In this document: positions 1,999 through 58,488 of the stretch, piece by piece | Numbering within the stretch: position 1 is the stretch's first letter | Layout: the number at the start of each line of letters is the position of its first letter | Made by a program: the position numbers and the translations under genes | NCBI GenBank assembly: GCA_045659905.1 | Contig: JAZRCT010000054.1 | Span: forward strand, 40,546-104,545 | Length of the DNA stretch: 64,000 bases | Source: Eubacteriales bacterium | GTDB lineage: Bacteria; Bacillota; Clostridia; Oscillospirales; CAG-272 | Direction of reading: 5' to 3' | Notes under the pieces: model-generated | The model's database searches: none | Told to the model about the DNA's origin: nothing | The model's input: only the letters and a program-made list of their open reading frames with translations

Positions 1999-2859
1999 TC
2001 ACACCGAGAAGCGTCTTGCGTAGCTGCATTTTTTACACAAGGCTTCTTCGGCACGTTTTTTTGCGAAGCCTTTTTTTATTTTCTCCGCACGCTCGCCGCA
2101 AAGAATCTCTGTGAGCGGCGAATTAAAAATATTTCCAATCGTCATTTCCCCTTCGCTGTCAAGGCAGCAGGGCACGACGCTACCGTCGGCAAGAATTGCT
2201 ACCTGGTCTGAAAGTGCGTGGCAGTATAGGCTCTCACGCTCCTCAGCTTTGCTCTCGGTAGGCCATACGAAGGTATCTCCGTGCTCAAGAAATATGTACC
2301 TTGAGAGCCTGATTCCCTGCCTATGCCGAGCAAAAGGTGCATCAAAATGAGAATAGAGAAATTCCTCTATTGCGGGATTAAAAAGATTTCTTCCCTGAGC
2401 ATCGGCGCTATCCTCGTTCCACAGACGAAAAACCGTGAATATCCCCGAAGCCGCCGCACGCCTTGCAAAATCCACCGAGGACGAAAGATACCCCTCAAGG
2501 TCGTTCATTGAATTTCCCTCGGGTGCGTGAAGCGAAATCGAAACCTTATGTATGATATCCGCATAGGAAATCAGGATATCGCCTCGTGAAGAAAGCAGCG
2601 TGCCGTTAGTGGTAATGCAAATCGGCATACCCTCCTCCCTTGCTATATAAAGCAGCCTATCAAGCTCGGGATGCAAAAGCGGCTCTCCCATCACGTGAAG
2701 ATACACGTACCTTACGTGCCCCTTGCATTTTTGCAAAATTTCCTTAAATTCACTCGGCGTCATTTGGCGCAATTTTCGGCTGGTTTTTGGGCAAAATGAA
2801 CACGAAAGATTACAAATATTGCCTATTTCTACATAAAGTCGCTCTATCAACAGTATCAC
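1999..2859 (-). CDS. radical SAM / SPASM-domain protein, unknown substrate
   Basis: CNLSCSFCP (CxxxCxxC) near the N-terminus. The C-terminus is Cys-rich (VPCCLDSEGE...CKKCSYA) and typical of a SPASM auxiliary cluster domain. GTG start. Confidence 0.8.
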   Translation of the reverse strand: MILLIERLYVEIGNICNLSCSFCPKTSRKLRQMTPSEFKEILQKCKGHVRYVYLHVMGEPLLHPELDRLLYIAREEGMPICITTNGTLLSSRGDILISYADIIHKVSISLHAPEGNSMNDLEGYLSSSVDFARRAAASGIFTVFRLWNEDSADAQGRNLFNPAIEEFLYSHFDAPFARHRQGIRLSRYIFLEHGDTFVWPTESKAEERESLYCHALSDQVAILADGSVVPCCLDSEGEMTIGNIFNSPLTEILCGERAEKIKKGFAKKRAEEALCKKCSYARRFSV

Positions 2860-3034
2860 TCCGCCTTTCTTTTTAATAGCTTAAGTGTGGGGCGCATTAC
2901 AGCTTTATACACCGCTCTTTCGAATCTTATTATAATACAAATAAAAGTGAAAAGCAATAGGCTTTATGCAGTATTTACTTTAAGACTTGCGCTCCTAAAG
3001 CTATTGCAGGCAAGGCTCAAGCTACTCAAAAAAG

Positions 3035-4630
3035 CTACATAAGGGGAGCGAACAGCCTTACCGTATAGCGCACGCACTTTTCAAAAAATCCGAGTGAGGC
3101 CGTGCTTTTCGTAATCTCGACGGAATCTCCGAGCGTCCTCATAAAGCCCTCTCTTACCTCTGAAATTTCCTTTGAGCCGCACGCCCAAATCGCACATTCA
3201 AAATGATGCACGAGGCTTCTGTAATCAAGATTTATAGTACCGATTATAGCAAGCTCTCCGTCGGCTACCAGCATTTTCTCGTGTATAAAGCCACGCTTGT
3301 ATTCAAATATTCTGACGCCCGCATCGATAAGCATTTCATACGAGCCCTTAGTCATAATCTTGACTATTTTCTTGTCAGCGATTCCGGGGGTTATTATTCT
3401 GACGTCGACGCCTCTTGACACCGCACGCCTCAGCGCCTCGGTTAAGTCGTAATCTATAATAAGGTAAGGAGTAGTTATATAGACGAAGCTTTGCGCTCCG
3501 TTTAGCGCATTTATTATCGAAAGCTTTCCCACCTGCTTTGAATATAAGGGCTTAGGACCCGTGCCAAAGGGCATAAGATAACCGTCCTTGCAACGCTCAC
3601 CTTCAGCCTTCTGGAGCTTGCCCTTAGCTTCTTCGGATTTCAAATCGCCTGAATCCCGTGAGCCGCCAAGCAGTGTTTCGTAATCACTTCGCACTCGGGC
3701 GGTAAAATCATACAGCGAGAGAAAAAGAGCTGTAAAGCCCCTTGCTGCCTCGCCAAGCACCATAGCGCCGCCGTCCTTCCAATGTCCGTAAAAGTCCTTG
3801 AGATTTATATACTCGTCGGCAATATTCACTCCGCCCGTAAATGCAAGCTCGCCGTCGACGACAAGCAGCTTTCGGTGGTCACGGTTGTTATGCACAGAGG
3901 TCACCTTTGGTGTCACCCTCGAAAAGCGTAAGCAGGAAATCCCCTCTCGGCGAAGCCTCTTATCAAAACTCCGGGGAAGCCTGCTCATACAGCCTATATC
4001 GTCGTAAAGAATACGTACGTCAACTCCCGCCCCCGCCTTCTTAATGAGCCTTTCGTAAATCCCCTGCCACATAACTCCATCTTCAATAATGAAGTATTCA
4101 AGAAATATAAATTTCTTTGCACTCTCAATTGCGATAAGCATCTCGGAATAAAGCTCCTCCTGAGATGAAAAATACCGAAACGAGCTACCCTTATATATAG
4201 AGCTTAAGGGGTCTGCGCCAAGCAGTGAATAGGCTTGTCCTGAGAGAGCTTTGCTTTCCTTAGCAAGCGAGGAAAGCGCTTTATCCATATCGGCGCTTTT
4301 CATATAAAGCGATATTTCCTCGGTAATTTTCTTCATTCTCAAGGAATCCTGCTTAGACATTCGCCTGCTATAAAATAGGATATATAAAAGCGCTCCGAAA
4401 AGCGGCATAACCAAAACAGCCACAAGCCAGCTTACCTTGAATTCGGGGTTGGCGTCACGGTTTATAAGGCTAAGCACGACAGCAATATCGCAGATTACCG
4501 CAATGCCAAAAATCCAGAAATAAAGATATACAGAGCGCATAATGATATAGGTCATAAGCGCTATGTCCAGCGCTATAACGATAGCGCATATAGTATATCT
4601 TGAAAAAAGAATTCTGCATAGTCTCCTCAT
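3035..4630 (-). CDS. cls: cardiolipin synthase
   Basis: 531 aa with N-terminal TM helices and two PLD HKD motifs (HRKLLVVDG and HEKMLVADG). Confidence 0.9.
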   Translation of the reverse strand: MRRLCRILFSRYTICAIVIALDIALMTYIIMRSVYLYFWIFGIAVICDIAVVLSLINRDANPEFKVSWLVAVLVMPLFGALLYILFYSRRMSKQDSLRMKKITEEISLYMKSADMDKALSSLAKESKALSGQAYSLLGADPLSSIYKGSSFRYFSSQEELYSEMLIAIESAKKFIFLEYFIIEDGVMWQGIYERLIKKAGAGVDVRILYDDIGCMSRLPRSFDKRLRREGISCLRFSRVTPKVTSVHNNRDHRKLLVVDGELAFTGGVNIADEYINLKDFYGHWKDGGAMVLGEAARGFTALFLSLYDFTARVRSDYETLLGGSRDSGDLKSEEAKGKLQKAEGERCKDGYLMPFGTGPKPLYSKQVGKLSIINALNGAQSFVYITTPYLIIDYDLTEALRRAVSRGVDVRIITPGIADKKIVKIMTKGSYEMLIDAGVRIFEYKRGFIHEKMLVADGELAIIGTINLDYRSLVHHFECAIWACGSKEISEVREGFMRTLGDSVEITKSTASLGFFEKCVRYTVRLFAPLM

Positions 4631-4728
4631 TTCAATACCCCCAGTTTAGTAAACAATCATTTGCAAAGTCAAGCTTTAACGTCTGATTAAACAAGAAATA
4701 TCAAAAAGAAAACTATGCAGAAAAAATG

Positions 4729-6150
4729 TTATTTTACTATCTCAACCTTAAGAAGATTGGTAGTACCCGAAAGATTAAGCGGAACTCCCGCTGTGATTAC
4801 CGCACGGTCACCCTCCGCTGCAAGACCTATATTCTTTGCGCAGTCTATTGCGTGTCGGAAGAGGGTATCGGTATCGTTCTGACAAAGTGAAAGCACCGGC
4901 AAAACTCCCCAGGAAAGCGAAAGCTGATGGAAGGTCTTATTCTCGGGGGTTGCCGCAATAATCGGCTGCTCGGGTCTGAATTTTGAAACCCGTCTTGCGG
5001 TATGTCCCGATTTCGTAACCGCAATAATAAGGTCGGCGTCCAAATCCCTTGCGGTGGTAACCGCAGCGTCGCAAAGAGCGTTAGTGATATCACGGAATTC
5101 GTTTTCGTAGCTTATTCCCTTATACACACCAAGCTCGGTAGCGTCACGCTCCGCCTGCTCTACAATCTTAGCCATAGTGCGAATAGCAAGGTCGGGGTGG
5201 TCGCCTGCGGCGGTTTCTCCCGAAAGCATAACTGCACTCGTTCCGTCAAATACGGCGTTTGCAACGTCGGTAATCTCGGCTCTGGTAGGCGTTTCGGAAT
5301 GAACCATTGATTCGAGCATCTGCGTTGCGGTAATTACCATCTTACCCGAGGAATAGCACTTTCTTATAAAGCGCTTCTGTATACCCGGGAGCTTTTCAAA
5401 TTCTATCTCAACTCCCATATCGCCTCTTGCGACCATTATACCGTCGGAATAGCGAAGAATCTCCTCGAAATTTCTTACGCCCTCGTGATTTTCTATCTTA
5501 GCTATAATCTTCACCGAATGTCCGCCGTGATAATCAAGGAAGCGGCGAAGCTCTATTACGTTTTCCTTGCTCGTAACGAAGGACGCCGCAATAAAATCAA
5601 CGTTTTCATTAATTCCAAAGAGCAAATCCTCCTCATCCGCCTTGCTGATATAGGGCATATCGACGTTGACGTTAGGAATATTTATGCTCTTTTTATCGGA
5701 TACCGTGCCTCCTACCTCCACACGGCATACGATATCGGTATCGGTATTCTCCTTCACCGTAAGGCTCACTCTGCCGTCGTCGATAAGGATTCTCGTCCCC
5801 TCCTTAAGCTGACCTACCAGGGGTGCGTAGGAAATCGTCGCCTCGCTTGAATTTCCCATAACCTCTCTTGAGGTAAGGACGAATTTCGAGCCTCTGGCAA
5901 GCTTTGCCTTGCCGCCCTCAAAGCTTCTCAGCCTGATTTCGGGGCCCTTCGTGTCAAGCAGCACCGCTGCGGGAATTTTAAGCTTATCCCTTATTTTTCT
6001 GAAGCGGTCCATCATCTCCTTGTGATAGTCGTGGCTTCCGTGCGAAAAATTAAATCTCGCCACGTTCATACCCGCCTTCAGCATTTTTTCAATCATTTCC
6101 TCGCTCTCGGTAGCAGGACCGAGGGTACATACAATTTTCGTCTTGCGCAT
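4729..6150 (-). CDS. pyk: pyruvate kinase
   Basis: 473 aa. It contains MRKTKIVCTLGPA, MVARGDMGVEI and other canonical pyruvate kinase motifs. Confidence 0.95.
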   Translation of the reverse strand: MRKTKIVCTLGPATESEEMIEKMLKAGMNVARFNFSHGSHDYHKEMMDRFRKIRDKLKIPAAVLLDTKGPEIRLRSFEGGKAKLARGSKFVLTSREVMGNSSEATISYAPLVGQLKEGTRILIDDGRVSLTVKENTDTDIVCRVEVGGTVSDKKSINIPNVNVDMPYISKADEEDLLFGINENVDFIAASFVTSKENVIELRRFLDYHGGHSVKIIAKIENHEGVRNFEEILRYSDGIMVARGDMGVEIEFEKLPGIQKRFIRKCYSSGKMVITATQMLESMVHSETPTRAEITDVANAVFDGTSAVMLSGETAAGDHPDLAIRTMAKIVEQAERDATELGVYKGISYENEFRDITNALCDAAVTTARDLDADLIIAVTKSGHTARRVSKFRPEQPIIAATPENKTFHQLSLSWGVLPVLSLCQNDTDTLFRHAIDCAKNIGLAAEGDRAVITAGVPLNLSGTTNLLKVEIVK

Positions 6151-6913: not shown

Positions 6914-8438
6914 AAGCTGCGTATCTCCTCTCTCTGTCGTACTCGTATTCTACGAAATTCTCGCTTACCGAAATAAAGCGCTTTGCATTTTTCTTTGAAT
7001 TTATCCTATAAGCAAGACCGCAAATTTCAATAGCTATTACGGGCGCCATCGCCACAAATGCAACGCAGCCGAAGGCATCGGTCATAACGTCGCCGCCAAG
7101 CACCGAGCAGGCTCCCGTTGCCAAGGGAAGCACGAATGCGCTCATCATAATACCGCTTGCAACTCCGCCCGAATCAAAGGCTATACCCACGAAAAGCTTA
7201 GGTATAAAGAAGGTAAGTCCCAGAGCTATAATATAGCCGGGTATAAGTATATACATAATGGATACGCCCGTAAGTATTCTCATTGCCGAAAGCCCGAGCG
7301 CCGCCGCAACTCCGATTGAAAGTCCAAGTCCCGTGGTCTTTCCCGAAACTGCGCCTGCCGTCATCTGCTCAACCTGCTTATTAAGGACGTAAACCGCAGG
7401 CTCTGCCTTGACTATAAAGAAGCCGAGCAGCATAGCGACGGGAGCAAGCAGCATTCCCGAAAAATTAGATGCAAGCATTTTACCGATTTCTGAGCCCATA
7501 GGCAAAAATCCGACGTTAGCGCCGGTGAGGAACACCGAAAGACCAATCACCACATAGACGAATCCGACGGCAATTCTGATAATCTGCTTTTTGGAGAAGC
7601 TTCTCGTCGAAAGCTGGAACAAAAGGAAGAATACAACCATAGGGCTTATCGCAATAAGCACCTCGGGCGTGTGATCGGCAAGACCGTGAAGATATGCGGT
7701 AATGCAGTCACGGGTAGTATCCACCGCAGGAATCTCAACCGGCACGTATTCTCCGCCCGATGCCTTTACTATAATTCCAAGCACCAGCACCGCTATAATA
7801 GGTCCTACGCTCGCAAGCGCCGTAAGACCGAAGGAATCTCCGCTCGAGCCTCGCTTTGAACGCATAGTAGATACGCCTGCGCCGATTGACATAATAAAGG
7901 GAACGGTCATAGGTCCTGTCGTAACTCCGCCCGAATCAAACGCCAGCGGTCTGAAGCTTTCAGGCAGGAAAAACGAGAGTGTAAATGCCGTTATGTAAAA
8001 TATTATTAGCAAAATATTGAGGTCAATACCAAAAACGATACGCAATACTCCAATAAGAAGGAATATACCTACGCCTACCGAAACCGTGAGAATAAGAAGC
8101 ATATCGTCGAGCCCCGGCACCTGGCTTGCAAGTATCTTGAGGTCAGGCTCGGACACCGTAACTATAATGCCTATAATGAAGCTTACAAGAGCCATAAGCC
8201 ATACCTTGCCCGAGGACGCCATCGAAGCGCCGACCTTATTACCGAGAGGCAGCATAGACATCTCCGCTCCGAGCGTAAACACGCTCATTCCAAGCACGAG
8301 AAGCGCAACACCTATTATGAAAAGCAATAAATACTCCGAATTTATCGGAAGTATCGTAAACGCCAGCGCAATAACTATAAGCGCAATCGGCATTATAGAC
8401 TGCACGGCCTCTAAAAGCTTTGAGCGCATCTGATTCAT
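6879..8438 (-). CDS. DUF1538-family polytopic membrane protein (internally duplicated)
   Basis: 519 aa and highly hydrophobic. The two halves each carry AFDSGGV(T/A)(T/S)G(P/I)M, the signature I associate with DUF1538. Confidence 0.6.
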   Translation of the reverse strand: MNQMRSKLLEAVQSIMPIALIVIALAFTILPINSEYLLLFIIGVALLVLGMSVFTLGAEMSMLPLGNKVGASMASSGKVWLMALVSFIIGIIVTVSEPDLKILASQVPGLDDMLLILTVSVGVGIFLLIGVLRIVFGIDLNILLIIFYITAFTLSFFLPESFRPLAFDSGGVTTGPMTVPFIMSIGAGVSTMRSKRGSSGDSFGLTALASVGPIIAVLVLGIIVKASGGEYVPVEIPAVDTTRDCITAYLHGLADHTPEVLIAISPMVVFFLLFQLSTRSFSKKQIIRIAVGFVYVVIGLSVFLTGANVGFLPMGSEIGKMLASNFSGMLLAPVAMLLGFFIVKAEPAVYVLNKQVEQMTAGAVSGKTTGLGLSIGVAAALGLSAMRILTGVSIMYILIPGYIIALGLTFFIPKLFVGIAFDSGGVASGIMMSAFVLPLATGACSVLGGDVMTDAFGCVAFVAMAPVIAIEICGLAYRINSKKNAKRFISVSENFVEYEYDRERRYAAYGNKEAEVEKG

Positions 8439-19512: not shown

Positions 19513-21012
19513 TCAGTCGTCAGCGCCGCCAAGAGATTCGAGCGCACCCTGCTTTTGAGGTCTTGAATCTCCGTGCTTGACGAAGAACATCGTAACGAAC
19601 GAAAGCGCCACGAAAAGAGTACCGAACGAGAAGAACATAGCTCTCATTCCGAACAAATCGTAAAGGAAGCCCGAAAGGATAGGCGCTACTATCTGCGCCG
19701 CCATAGAAGCGGTATAGTAATAGCCCGTATATTTTCCTACCTCGCCGCCCTTAGCAAGCTCAACCACCATCGGGAAGGAGTTGACGTTAATAGTAGCCCA
19801 GCCGATTCCCGCAAGAATAAAGACGGGATACATAACTAATTCAGGCGAATCGAAGCTGATAAAATTACCGATAAAGAACGCGGTGGCAAGCATCGCAACG
19901 CCTGCAAGAATCGTCTTTCTTCTGCCTATCTTAGAGGCTACCATACCTACGGGAATGTAGGCGACAACGGCCGCCGCCTGAGCAATTATAAGCGTAAGAT
20001 TGAAATCGAAGAAAAGAACGTTCGTCGCATATACAGAATACTTGCTGGTGATTGAATTGTAGCCTATATACCAAAGCGCAACCGATGCAAGTATCAACGC
20101 AAGCGATTTAAGCTCTGCCCCGGAAAGAGTGCGCTTCTCGCCGTCGGCACTCTCGGTGGGCTTCTCCTCAAGTCCAAGCTCCTCGGTGGTACGCTCCATC
20201 TCCTCTGCCCACTTGCGCTCCTTGACGGTAAGAAGGAATACCGTAAGTCCTGCCAGCATAATGCCGCAAACCGCTACTACGTAGCCCGTATACTGCATAT
20301 ACTTATTTTCCGAGGTCTTGAATATCATACCGAGGACGAGGACAAGAATACCGCCGCCCGTGCCCATAAGATTGATTATAGCATTTCCCTTTGAGCGCAG
20401 AGGCTTCACGGTGACGTCAGGCATAAGCGCAACCGCAGGAGAGCGGAAGGTCGCCATCGAAATAAGCGTAAGCAGAAGCACGCCGATAAAGCCTACGATA
20501 GGCCAAAGGTTGCCAAGAGTGATATTCAAGGTCTCCTCTCTTACAAGCTCAAGGCTATCGTTGATAGATTCAATAGTGGCTCTTGCCGCCTCGACCGCAG
20601 CCTGATTTCCAAGCTTACCCGCTTCCTTAAGCGCAAGATTTGCCTCCTTAAGCTCAAGAGCCAACGCCTGATATCTTTCGCTGATGCCTGCATCTATTAC
20701 AGACTTAAGCTGTATTCCGTCTATAAGCGTAAGTGAGATAAAGGCGATAACCGCCGCAACCGTGCCTATCACGATAAACGGAGTTCTCTTTCCGAATCTC
20801 GTCATAATCTTATCGGAAATCGCTCCGAAAATCGGGAGCATAAACACCGCAAGAATATTATCAGCCGACATTACTATGCCCGAGAGCGTCTGGGGTAAGC
20901 CGAAATGATTGGTCAAAGCGAGAGGGATTATTGCGTCGTACGCCTGCCAGAAGGCGCTTATAAGAAAAAATGCGAATCCAACGAGTATTGTGCGCTTGTA
21001 ATTTAGCTTCAT
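19513..21012 (-). CDS. MFS transporter (GPH/SLC45-like) with a long helical loop insertion
   Basis: 499 aa with about 12 hydrophobic segments. An A/E/L-rich insertion of about 70 aa (ERYQALALELKEANLALKEAGKLGNQAAVEAARATIES...) follows the third or fourth helix. Confidence 0.8.
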   Translation of the reverse strand: MKLNYKRTILVGFAFFLISAFWQAYDAIIPLALTNHFGLPQTLSGIVMSADNILAVFMLPIFGAISDKIMTRFGKRTPFIVIGTVAAVIAFISLTLIDGIQLKSVIDAGISERYQALALELKEANLALKEAGKLGNQAAVEAARATIESINDSLELVREETLNITLGNLWPIVGFIGVLLLTLISMATFRSPAVALMPDVTVKPLRSKGNAIINLMGTGGGILVLVLGMIFKTSENKYMQYTGYVVAVCGIMLAGLTVFLLTVKERKWAEEMERTTEELGLEEKPTESADGEKRTLSGAELKSLALILASVALWYIGYNSITSKYSVYATNVLFFDFNLTLIIAQAAAVVAYIPVGMVASKIGRRKTILAGVAMLATAFFIGNFISFDSPELVMYPVFILAGIGWATINVNSFPMVVELAKGGEVGKYTGYYYTASMAAQIVAPILSGFLYDLFGMRAMFFSFGTLFVALSFVTMFFVKHGDSRPQKQGALESLGGADD

Positions 21013-28728: not shown

Positions 28729-28750
28729 TTAGATAAGCAGGATAGAAACA

Positions 28751-28812
28751 GGGGTGCTTTGCAGCCAAAGCACCCCTCGACACCCCGAAAGCATTTTTGG
28801 AGGTGTTTTTTT
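28751..28812 (+). terminator. two-hairpin terminator module, copy A
   Basis: GGGGTGCTTTG-CAGC-CAAAGCACCCC (28751-28776), then ACACCCC-GAAAGCATTTTT-GGAGGTGT plus T7 (28780-28812). It lies 23 nt after the lysS stop. Confidence 0.75.
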
Positions 28813-28951
28813 ATTGCCTTACGGCAATATCACTCTTCACGCAAGTGAAGAATATAACTCCTCACGTAAGTGAGGAATATCACTGTCGCCTGAGCGACAA
28901 TATCACTCCTTGCGAAGCACTCCCCAAGGTGAATATATAAGCCTTATATTC
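28813..28951 (+). repeat. mini-hairpin micro-array A (conserved word AATATCACT)
   Basis: Hairpins are ATTGCC-TTAC-GGCAAT, CTTCAC-GCAA-GTGAAG, CCTCAC-GTAA-GTGAGG, GTCGC-CTGA-GCGAC, CCTTG...CAAGG and GAATATA-N7-TATATTC. The first five alternate with AATATCACT at 28826, 28876 and 28899 and the variant AATATAACT at 28851. Confidence 0.75.
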
Positions 28952-29050
28952 CCGTATACAAATAATTTACACAGGCTCGCTTGACTTGCCATATTGATAT
29001 ATGATAAAATAGGTGAAAAGCGAAATGAAGCCTTGCGAAAGGAGCGTCAA

Positions 29051-29800: not shown

Positions 29801-30087
29801 TAGCAAACCCCAAGGGATTTCATAAAATGCTATCAGCGAGTATTTCGCTAAGGCTTTTTTCGGAGTATTTTATGAAAATTATTATCTTACGTGCGCCCCG
29901 TGCGTTGCGTCCTATACTTAAAAAGCTGTTTTCCATAAGCTGACAGCGAGGCGTAATAATTAAAATCAAGAAAGAGAGAGTAAATCGGTACAGAAATATG
30001 CCGAAATGCTCCCTCTTTTTCCTTATCATTTGCCTAGCCTTATAAGGAACACTTTGATTTTAAAGCGTTCGAACGTATTTTTAAAAA

Positions 30088-30146
30088 GGGACGCTTTGAA
30101 GCCAAAGCGTCCCTTACACCCCGAAAGCATTTTGGGGTGTTTTTTA
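30088..30146 (+). terminator. two-hairpin terminator module, copy B
   Basis: GGGACGCTTTG-AAGC-CAAAGCGTCCC (30088-30113), then ACACCCC-GAAAGCATTTT-GGGGTGT plus T-run (30116-30146). It is nearly identical to copy A apart from compensatory changes in stem 1. Confidence 0.75.
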
Positions 30147-30268
30147 TTGCCTTGGGGCAATATCACTCTTTGCGAAAGCAAAGAATATCACTGCGAAGCA
30201 ATATCACCCTCGCCGCAGCGAGGATATTTCACTCTTCACTCTTCACTTTTCACTCTTCACTCTTACCT
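30146..30268 (+). repeat. mini-hairpin micro-array B plus YTTCACT heptamer tandem repeat
   Basis: Hairpins are ATTGCC-TTGG-GGCAAT, CTTTGC-GAAA-GCAAAG, GC-GAA-GC and CCTCGC-CGCA-GCGAGG. They are separated by AATATCACT/AATATCACC at 30159, 30184 and 30200. Tandem TTTCACT CTTCACT CTTCACT TTTCACT CTTCACT follows at 30227-30261. Confidence 0.75.
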
Positions 30269-30282
30269 CCAGAGCATCTGTG

Positions 30283-30414
30283 TCAGATGCTCTGGTTCAA
30301 GTCCCACACGCCATCGGTATTTTCTACGGCGGTGGTTTCAGTTCCGGAGGTAGTAATGATATCCGAATTTACAAGATTTATTACCTCAAAATCGGGGTTA
30401 ATGTAAAGTTTCAT
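30283..30414 (-). CDS. 43-aa peptide, paralog of the 40744-40890 peptide (not in ORF track)
   Basis: ATG at 30414, preceded by AAAGGAGG, 18 nt after the stop of the 818-aa gene. Translation: MKLYINPDFEVINLVNSDIITTSGTETTAVENTDGVWDLNQSI. It shares M-K-x-Y-I-x-P-x-x-E...L...D-I-I-T-x-S with the other peptide. Its stop codon lies inside a 12-bp hairpin (30269-30296). Confidence 0.6.
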   Translation of the reverse strand: MKLYINPDFEVINLVNSDIITTSGTETTAVENTDGVWDLNQSI

Positions 30415-40953: not shown

Positions 40954-40975
40954 CTTGCTTCCCGATGGTAATCAG

Positions 40976-41139
40976 GTGAAGTTTTCGCTTATGCGAAAGT
41001 GAAGTTGCTACGCAGTGAAGTTTGTGCTACGCACAAGTGAAGTTATGTTTGCCCTCTTTGCCGAAGGCAAAACTTCACTATCCGCAGGATAACTTCACTT
41101 ACGTAGTAAACTTCACTTGCCCGCAAGGGCAAACTTAGT
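40976..41139 (+). repeat. mini-hairpin micro-array C (GTGAAGTT x4, then AACTTCAC(T) x4)
   Basis: GTGAAGTT occurs at 40976, 40999, 41015 and 41037. AACTTCACT occurs at 41071, 41091 and 41109, with a degenerate AACTTAGT at 41132. The words are separated by mini-hairpins: TTTCGC-TTAT-GCGAAA, TGC-TAC-GCA, TGTGC-TAC-GCACA, TTTGCC-GAA-GGCAAA, ATCC-GCA-GGAT, TACGTA and TGCCC-GCAA-GGGCA. Confidence 0.75.
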
Positions 41140-41143
41140 TAAT

Positions 41144-58412: not shown

Positions 58413-58488
58413 GCTGCTATGGCTCAGCTGGTAGAGCACATCCTTGGTAAGGATGAGGTCCCCGGTCCGAATCCGGGTAGCAGCTCCA
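58413..58488 (+). tRNA. tRNA-Thr (anticodon GGU), CCA encoded
   Basis: Cloverleaf by hand. Acceptor GCTGCTA/TAGCAGC. D arm GCTC-AGCTGGTA-GAGC. Anticodon arm CATCC-TTGGTAA-GGATG. T arm CCCGG-TCCGAAT-CCGGG. Discriminator T, then CCA. Confidence 0.93.

Follow-up and report, generated by a model that had tools for sequence, protein, structure and literature searches.

A hairpin array downstream of lysS is a partial copy, variable between strains, of a dispersed gut-Clostridia repeat, one arm of which is Rfam Gut-1

Introduction

Rows of short hairpins separated by a conserved word are known from the Rfam family Gut-1 (RF01706), which is typed there as Gene; sRNA. The motif was described from 43 copies in human-gut metagenomes, with no sequenced organism or function reported, and was rated a likely RNA from covariation (Weinberg 2010, Genome Biol 11:R31, PMC2864571). 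The original Stockholm file of that study already contains GUGAUAUU members with a reverse array behind them. The Gut-1 model comprises three hairpins split by GUGAAAU, and the AU...GU of adjoining words lengthens each stem. In a full-text search we found no literature naming Gut-1 besides Weinberg 2010, and no function, organism or gene association for it.

Other known repeats share some of these properties. REP/BIME elements of enterobacteria are short extragenic palindromes that occur in many copies, clustered behind genes in alternating orientation; each hairpin has a conserved word at its foot, and within one genome the stems of REPs keep their sequence. In Streptococcus pneumoniae, BOX elements are intergenic repeats built from modules, the internal ones varying in number, and their predicted folding is stable; the modules are 45-59 nt units of conserved sequence, without an alternation of linker and variable hairpin, and we know of no enzyme that mobilises them. 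CRISPR arrays are defined by repeats of 23-50 nt, unique non-palindromic spacers and cas genes.

Here we analyse a hairpin array (array A, 28813-28951) lying behind lysS in a stretch of 64,000 nt from a Eubacteriales bacterium (the window). A first-pass annotation, made from the sequence alone, had likened it to modular BOX-type repeats and to an inverted CRISPR array, in which the linker is conserved and each unit is a different self-complementary sequence. We find array A to be a solo copy, partial and variable between strains, of a dispersed gut-Clostridia repeat that has Rfam Gut-1 as one of its arms. Array A is not a new kind of element, the family having already been named by Rfam.

Results

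Structure of array A

Six hairpins can be read straight from the sequence at 28813-28951, with the loops that had been listed for them (TTAC, GCAA, GTAA, CTGA, 12 nt and 7 nt). Between them lie AATATCACT three times (28826, 28876 and 28899) and AATATAACT once (28851), at spacings of 25, 25 and 23 nt, in agreement with the period of 23-25 nt given before. As had been described, the array follows the probable lysS terminator: it starts directly 3' of a hairpin and T-run at 28780-28812. It ends ~30 nt before a promoter-like site at 28981-29010, which is the right-hand limit of the gap. The features are as follows (where no strand is given, none was assigned).

28750-28777: hairpin T1 (GGGGTGCTTTG-CAGC-CAAAGCACCCC), terminator-like on the minus strand in the terminator scan
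28780-28812, plus strand: hairpin T2 and T-run, probable lysS intrinsic terminator (terminator scan, consensus prediction)
28813-28828: hairpin 1, ATTGCC-TTAC-GGCAAT (sequence); the sole linker-unit hairpin of array A shared with 94%-identical relatives
28826-28834, plus strand: linker AATATCACT, reading AGTGATATT on the minus strand (word count)
28835-28850: hairpin 2, CTTCAC-GCAA-GTGAAG (sequence)
28860-28875: hairpin 3, CCTCAC-GTAA-GTGAGG (sequence)
28885-28898: hairpin 4, GTCGC-CTGA-GCGAC (sequence)
28908-28929: hairpin 5, CCTTG-(12-nt loop)-CAAGG, with a degenerate counterpart in relatives
28931-28951: hairpin 6, GAATATA-(7-nt loop)-TATATTC, AT-rich, outside the linker array and kept in relatives
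28835-28907: strain-variable 73-nt block with hairpins 2-4 and the linkers at 28851, 28876 and 28899 (comparison with loci L245-L248)
28825-28835 and 28898-28908: 11-nt direct repeat CAATATCACTC bounding the 73-nt block (sequence)
28981-29010, plus strand: promoter-like site TTGACT-18-TAAAAT with TG in front, of the downstream gene for a 249-aa protein (consensus prediction)

The first-pass annotation had proposed that the 9-mer be enriched and that shuffled sequences lack comparable structure, and both expectations were borne out. AATATCACT occurs 7 times within the window versus 0.51 expected, and 0 of 100 shuffles reached 7. Five of the 7 copies lie within arrays A and B (see below), and those at 20526 and 46895 are isolated and in coding sequence. 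The two-linker pattern GTGAWRTT-N6-26-GTGAWRTT has 8 occurrences in the window where 0.01 are expected, and each of them falls into one of the three arrays A, B and C. Relative to dinucleotide shuffles, the predicted fold of 28735-28960 has a z-score of -9.7 (plus strand) and -8.4 (minus strand). Array A is real and not a chance structure. Its hairpins do not have the form of intrinsic terminators, as they run into AATATCACT; on the plus strand only T2 fits, and on the minus strand one unit was weakly flagged, the linker being T-rich there.

Read on the minus strand, array A is AGTGATATT-hairpin repeated four times, and it aligns with the three-hairpin layout of Gut-1, including adjoining words able to lengthen each stem, over model positions 1-77 (28822..28908, minus strand, 42.6 bits, E 1.2e-6). 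Array B matches on the same strand with 43.6 bits (E about 1e-6). Both matches are below the Rfam gathering score of 50 bits, and the right half of array C, also on the minus strand, is above it. In the window, the gathering score of any Rfam family was reached only by this half (41067-41141) and by a tRNA at 58413-58485.

Arrays B and C

The two related arrays that had been pointed out at 30146-30268 and 40976-41139 are both real and of the same family. The first region (array B) contains AATATCACT twice and AATATCACC, followed by a run of TTCACTC heptamers; the second (array C) contains AGTGAAGTT four times and then flips to AACTTCACT, present three times.

30086-30148, plus strand: second copy of the T1/T2 double hairpin, 5' of array B (comparison with T1/T2 at array A)
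30146-30227: array B, hairpins ATTGCC-TTGG-GGCAAT, CTTTGC-GAAA-GCAAAG, GC-GAA-GC and CCTCGC-CGCA-GCGAGG, with AATATCAC linkers
30228-30264, plus strand: TTCACTC heptamer run, 5.3 copies, the linker core without hairpins (sequence)
40975-41141: array C, complete composite element with two arms, GTGAAGTT family (end-to-end alignment with other species)
40976-41044, plus strand: long arm of array C (alignment)
41045-41070: centre of array C (alignment)
41067-41141, minus strand: short arm of array C, Gut-1 (53.5 bits)

Array C aligned end to end, with 75-86% identity, to elements of other species; the alignment is confined to 40975-41141, and the flanks are unalignable except, in part, those of locus L126. 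Array C has all the features of the two-armed composite, whereas arrays A and B have one arm each, fused to the shared T1/T2 double hairpin, and are therefore partial copies. The arrays do not stand alone; they are arms of a larger two-armed element, and the family is Gut-1, modelled on the opposite strand. As for the double hairpin, T1 is repeated 5' of array B with two compensatory pair changes, and the T2 region is 89% identical to 30116-30148. We considered T1/T2 as a general module and dropped this idea, as the sole match outside the window was one of 18 nt in L149.

The TTCACTC run is kept in the L245 ortholog (about 7500-7545). Comparison of window positions 30019-30291 with L246 (5966-7292) showed that relatives carry a gene for an AraC-family regulator between the 249-aa gene and the array-B site, which the window lacks; the breakpoint is just 3' of a AGAAAGAGAG-type hairpin.

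Occurrence and anatomy of the composite element

A scan of a genome collection for three AGTGAWRTT words yielded at least 120 loci. Among the matches listed, the carriers are nearly all metagenome-assembled genomes (MAGs) of gut Clostridia (Acutalibacteraceae, Oscillospiraceae, Ruminococcus, Christensenellaceae and 'Eubacteriales'), and a hairpin-aware detector found at least 174 true arrays, in 110 of the 120 loci listed. One contig (L129, 2314-3301), labelled as an Akkermansia sp. MAG, has three GTGAAAT-type arrays in one 1.5-kb intergenic region; either the family reaches beyond Clostridia or this contig is mis-binned. A phage origin was considered and dropped, as the three-linker pattern in viral contigs gave one true array (L030) among 120 hits, the rest being chance matches or tandem repeats.

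Alignments revealed one layout across both main linker families. A complete element is ~170-190 nt long and has two converging arms with the same linker word. Each arm is an alternation of a 7-9 nt word (such as GTGATATT, GTGAAGTT or GTGAAAT) with short hairpins whose stems pair perfectly, and the linkers within one element are all of one type. The long arm consists of four words and three hairpins, and the centre reads ATATTCGCC...AACT or AAGTTTGCC...; the short arm has the opposite polarity, ends in AATATAACT or AACTTAGTT, and is the part that Rfam scores as Gut-1. Of 51 adjacent array pairs in the loci listed, 48 point toward each other and none point apart; these 48 are all the pairs with arrays on opposite strands, and in most pairs the centre between the converging arms measures 27-32 nt. 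A partner arm with degenerate linkers was found for many arrays that had first seemed unpaired. In 33 of 35 elements the short arm has, at its outer end, the complement of a 12-mer of the centre (controls give 7-8 of 12 matches), and the differences between families are compensated.

The same hairpins stand at the same positions in other species, with 52-55 distinct sequences and 34-37 different stems per hairpin position. The earlier description of array A, a conserved linker alternating with different self-complementary units, is correct; its hairpins, which had been called unique, recur in other species. The elements are mostly intergenic (113 of 123), with the adjoining gene end being a 3' end in 123 cases and a 5' end in 81, and extra terminator-like hairpins often abut both ends. 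An internal sigma-70 promoter (TTGAAA-17-TATTAT) suspected in the centre of the TA family was dropped: its -10 box is degenerate in many copies and missing in the GAAGTT family.

Two further conserved structures were observed near the elements. One is a terminator-like hairpin, AGAAAGAGAGnnC-AAATCGG..CCGAAAT-GnnCTCTCTTTTTCT, at window positions 29970-30022, with a conserved loop and a variable stem. Hairpins of the AGAAAGAGAGnnC type are also found in L125, L157, L167, L169, L188, L191, L192, L198, L209, L229 and L241, and often abut the long arm; they may belong to the element itself or represent another dispersed family of terminators. The other is a non-coding stretch of ~130 nt (GGGTGATGTCCTTAGCGGAGAATTT...GCATTTGACTAGTCAAACGC...) 3' of valS and a small XRE-type gene, conserved in six species:

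L241, 2780-2905: conserved ~130-nt stretch, orthologous in L125, L167, L169, L191 and L229

A known RNA next to it was considered, and Rfam gave none; the stretch itself has no match in Rfam either. The element behind it belongs to the GATATT family in some species and to the GAAGTT family in others.

Gain, loss and spread of copies

Searches for identical copies of the proteins LysS, GreA and P0001 found nothing, and the relatives compared here were identified via homologs and members of protein clusters. In four contigs that are 93-94% identical to the window in nucleotide sequence, the only array units after lysS are the first hairpin and one linker. Relative to L245-L248, the window contains 73 extra nt, which are exactly three hairpin-linker units bounded by the direct repeat CAATATCACTC, which indicates that slippage or recombination between linkers has added or removed units. 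This is the change in copy number between relatives that the first-pass annotation had proposed to look for (one unit in the relatives, three more in the window), and the number of units varying between close relatives is one respect in which its analogy with BOX, as a dispersed, modular and intergenic repeat, is apt in kind. More distant relatives, with a 73%-identical ortholog of the 249-aa protein, have no array at the site downstream of lysS, and the site after the next gene has a GTGAAGTT-type array with stems matching those of array C of the window.

The array-B site is variable as well. L245 has one extra unit and a half-compensated stem (CCTCAC/GCGAGG) there, in line with the stem covariation that had also been suggested, and L246 and L247 have an element with a different word (TATGATATA). 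In L245 a GTGAATT-type element lies within the T2 hairpin. In L226 (2538-2952) one arm has grown to 19 linkers (CATATCACG), a block of three hairpins (~65 nt) being repeated about six times in tandem. L186 and L170 carry two copies each, separated by 2.6 kb in L186; within the element the two copies are nearly identical, and their flanks are unrelated. No target-site duplication was seen at the L186 and L170 copies, and no transposase or recombinase family was found to recur in the flanks of 120 loci. We also considered an autonomous transposon between the two L183 arrays; the intervening genes are housekeeping ones (PNP, amidohydrolase, pseudouridine synthase). The sharp ends of the copies, their unrelated flanks, and the related genomes that carry, lack or swap elements at one site show that the family propagates and turns over as DNA.

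L245 also differs from the window in other ways. Between lysS and the 249-aa gene (2680-5000) it has genes for a Xis and an integrase of the Tn916 type, and ~480 nt of other sequence there split hairpin T1 between AGGGG and CCCCT.

A PF05635 gene follows complete elements

We clustered 736 flanking ORFs, from about 800 kb of flanks, all against all. The sole recurrent neighbour is a protein of ~118 aa that matches PF05635 (23S_rRNA_IVP, E 1.8e-28) and TIGR02436 (four helix bundle protein), with 2RLD as a relative in the PDB. PF05635 is the family of the Avd proteins of DGRs and of ORFs in rRNA intervening sequences (PMC10053308; bioRxiv 10.1101/2024.02.27.582315). The gene is directly downstream of the element in seven genome loci (L133, L134, L145, L173, L186, L199 and L202), where it starts 40-60 nt from the end of the long arm and is directed away from the element. 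L145 and L199 have the element and the gene in common (95% amino-acid identity) and differ in their flanks.

A search that started from the gene gave 80 metagenome loci (L249-L328), 40 of which, after dereplication, had at least 260 nt upstream; it was seeded with element-adjacent proteins and covers that subfamily only (56-83% identity). A 7-mer recurs at least four times within the 260 nt upstream in 34 of the 40 PF05635 loci, compared with 5 of 37 in the downstream control. The linker word follows the clade of the protein (GTGATAT, GTGAAGT, GTGAAAT, ATGATAT, ATGAAAT, GCTAAAT, GTTAAGA). The module runs, by consensus predictions, from a terminator hairpin through the element and a sigma-70-like promoter to the PF05635 gene, and the -35 box of the predicted promoter abuts the last linker. 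It often lies just 3' of a tRNA gene, and the genes downstream of the PF05635 genes are unrelated housekeeping ones. No reverse transcriptase or transposase was found downstream of 12 representative PF05635 genes, and with no reverse transcriptase there we rejected a link to DGRs or retroelements via Avd. The window itself contains no PF05635 gene. A link between Gut-1 and PF05635 is unmentioned in Weinberg 2010, in the first 200 of its 438 supplementary files and in the literature returned by full-text search. That complete elements directly precede PF05635 genes is a new finding here, within the subfamily of 56-83% identity.

Stems, loops and orientation

As in the Gut-1 family, the stems are variable yet paired: 293 unique hairpins contain 1200 Watson-Crick pairs and 25 G·T or A·C pairs (~98% Watson-Crick), which also agrees with the stem covariation expected for the arrays. 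We attempted to assign the strand from the wobble pairs. The cleanest count, in the Rfam sense, gave 7 G·T versus 17 A·C among 1261 Watson-Crick pairs; a second count on the 293 hairpins gave 12:13, and a third, with a looser hairpin finder and with flanking hairpins included, gave 28:8. The three counts disagree, and we take the strand argument from them as nil. There is no excess of G·U; the signature of an RNA, many G·U and few A·C, is absent.

The loops are biased throughout the family. Seen on the AATATCACT strand, they are triloops of the form GNA and tetraloops of the form GNRA/GNNA, corresponding to T..C loops in the Gut-1 sense (TTC, TAC, TGC, TTGC, TTAC). As the arms are inverted, only one arm per physical strand has G..A loops. 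So strong a loop bias shows single-strand selection of some kind. GNRA loops stabilise RNA, and C-GNA-G triloops such as d(GCGAAGC) are the classic ultra-stable DNA mini-hairpin; GCGAAGC is present verbatim in array B. The two GNRA loops of array A had been taken to hint at a function at the RNA level. They are indeed part of the family-wide GNA/GNRA bias; this bias does not establish an RNA function, because G·U pairs are near zero, the elements are placed between predicted terminators and promoters, and C-GNA-G hairpins are stable as DNA. Array A itself lies between a terminator-like and a promoter-like site, both consensus predictions. The gene beside the Gut-1 arm is directed toward the element in 47 cases and away in 19, and the gene beside the long arm is unbiased (30:35).

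Discussion

Array A shares with Gut-1 the arrangement of at least three short variable hairpins split by GUGAAAU/GUGAUAUU words in gut bacteria. The Rfam model covers one arm on one strand, whereas the real unit is two-armed and array A is a solo arm that had been read on the opposite strand. In contrast to REP/BIME, here the stems differ between units and copies and the linker is conserved, and no gene for a RAYT (Y1 transposase), which would mark REP/BIME membership, was seen in about 800 kb of flanks. We know of no sequence relationship between BOX and the Gut-1 family. Imperfect terminal inverted repeats (AGTGATATTC / AGTTATATTC), one word repeated in inverted orientation in both ends, and sharp boundaries recall MITEs and transposon ends (Tn7, Mu, IS21-type); here, however, the spacers between sites are obligate palindromes, no target-site duplication is visible at L186/L170, and no autonomous transposase partner was seen, the only recurrent neighbour being PF05635. 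The 23S rRNA intervening sequences with a PF05635 ORF have the same protein family riding with a strongly self-complementary, insertion-like element. They are located within helices of rRNA, with the ORF enclosed by their inverted repeats, whereas in the Gut-1 modules both arms are upstream of the gene, outside rRNA, with a predicted promoter between.

The reading that we favour, and that we hold to be probable, is that of a dispersed repeat kept and moved at the DNA level, with the linker as recognition word, the hairpins as structural spacers, and a local function that is nil or gap padding. What counts in the hairpins would then be their structure as nucleic acid, whichever the strand, in the simplest case as hairpins or cruciforms of DNA, and the linker word would be a sequence-specific recognition site for a family-specific protein. 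The best candidate for this protein would be the PF05635 four-helix-bundle (Avd-like) protein, its gene being the one behind complete elements. Recombination between linkers, or slippage, changes the number of units. A locus-specific role of the array behind lysS is improbable; it may lengthen or insulate the gap between terminator and promoter. A more specific proposal, which we offer tentatively as a possibility that we would not bet on, would make the arrays the cognate nucleic-acid partners of PF05635 proteins: element and gene would form a two-part selfish module, in which the protein reads the clade-specific linker word between DNA or RNA hairpins, and solo arrays, which are far commoner and include A, B and C, would be non-autonomous copies or decoys.

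The main rival is the structured non-coding RNA that Rfam annotates. The arrays would then be transcripts in which the hairpins display the linkers single-stranded, and this RNA would either offer many sites to an RNA-binding protein, as a sponge or scaffold in the manner of CsrB/RsmZ, or protect as a 3' UTR. Matches to the Gut-1 covariance model, the covariation rating (Weinberg 2010, PMC2864571), the highly diverse yet paired stems, the GNRA and GNA loops and the strongly negative folding z-scores are all consistent with this, and the 47:19 orientation of the gene beside the Gut-1 arm would suit a co-transcribed RNA. However, G·U makes up ~0.5% of stem pairs and is no commoner than A·C, and since the arms are opposite in polarity a single transcript cannot hold both in one sense. 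Moreover, the arrays are much denser than is usual for a trans-acting sRNA, with three loci falling within 13 kb of the window and other 8-kb loci containing up to several; the elements lie between predicted terminators and promoters, and they are gained, lost and replaced fast among 94%-identical genomes. We regard an sRNA as unlikely.

Considerably less probable still is a locus-specific cluster of cis-regulatory sites, where the 9-mers would serve as operator- or iteron-like sites for a regulator that binds double-stranded DNA and controls lysS termination or the downstream promoter. The promoter-like site ~30 nt downstream of array A and the last linker abutting the -35 box in the PF05635 modules would fit such a cluster. 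Yet the spacing of the words ranges from 16 to 25 nt, so that there is no helical phasing; the sequence between them is always a palindrome, and a differing one, which a binder of double-stranded DNA does not need; 94%-identical relatives with the same flanking genes and promoter have one unit only; and unrelated genes adjoin the same elements. An array processed like CRISPR or type III toxin-antitoxin RNA, i.e. a tandem-repeat RNA cut to units by a dedicated nuclease, was already disfavoured, and we give it hardly any credence. A conserved word in tandem with a variable unit, and complete arrays 5' of a small gene, would fit it. Against it, no cas or endoribonuclease gene is present in the flanks examined, the best CRISPR-repeat model (CRISPR-DR) reaches 21 bits where the gathering threshold is 50, the repeat measures 9 nt, the 'spacers' are palindromes of 7-16 nt that recur between species, and array and gene are separated by a predicted promoter, not by a terminator.

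Taken alone, array A is an ordinary solo copy of a family named by Rfam. What is added here is the host clade (gut Oscillospirales-type Clostridia), a two-armed architecture that extends beyond the Rfam model, turnover between near-identical genomes, and the clade-matched link to PF05635. For annotators, Gut-1 matches may be dispersed DNA repeats rather than sRNA genes. The PF05635 link joins two entries without a function in one hypothesis of protein-nucleic-acid recognition; if true, the partnership of the arrays with PF05635 proteins would provide the first function both for the Gut-1 motif, open since 2010, and for the IVS protein family, open since the 1990s.
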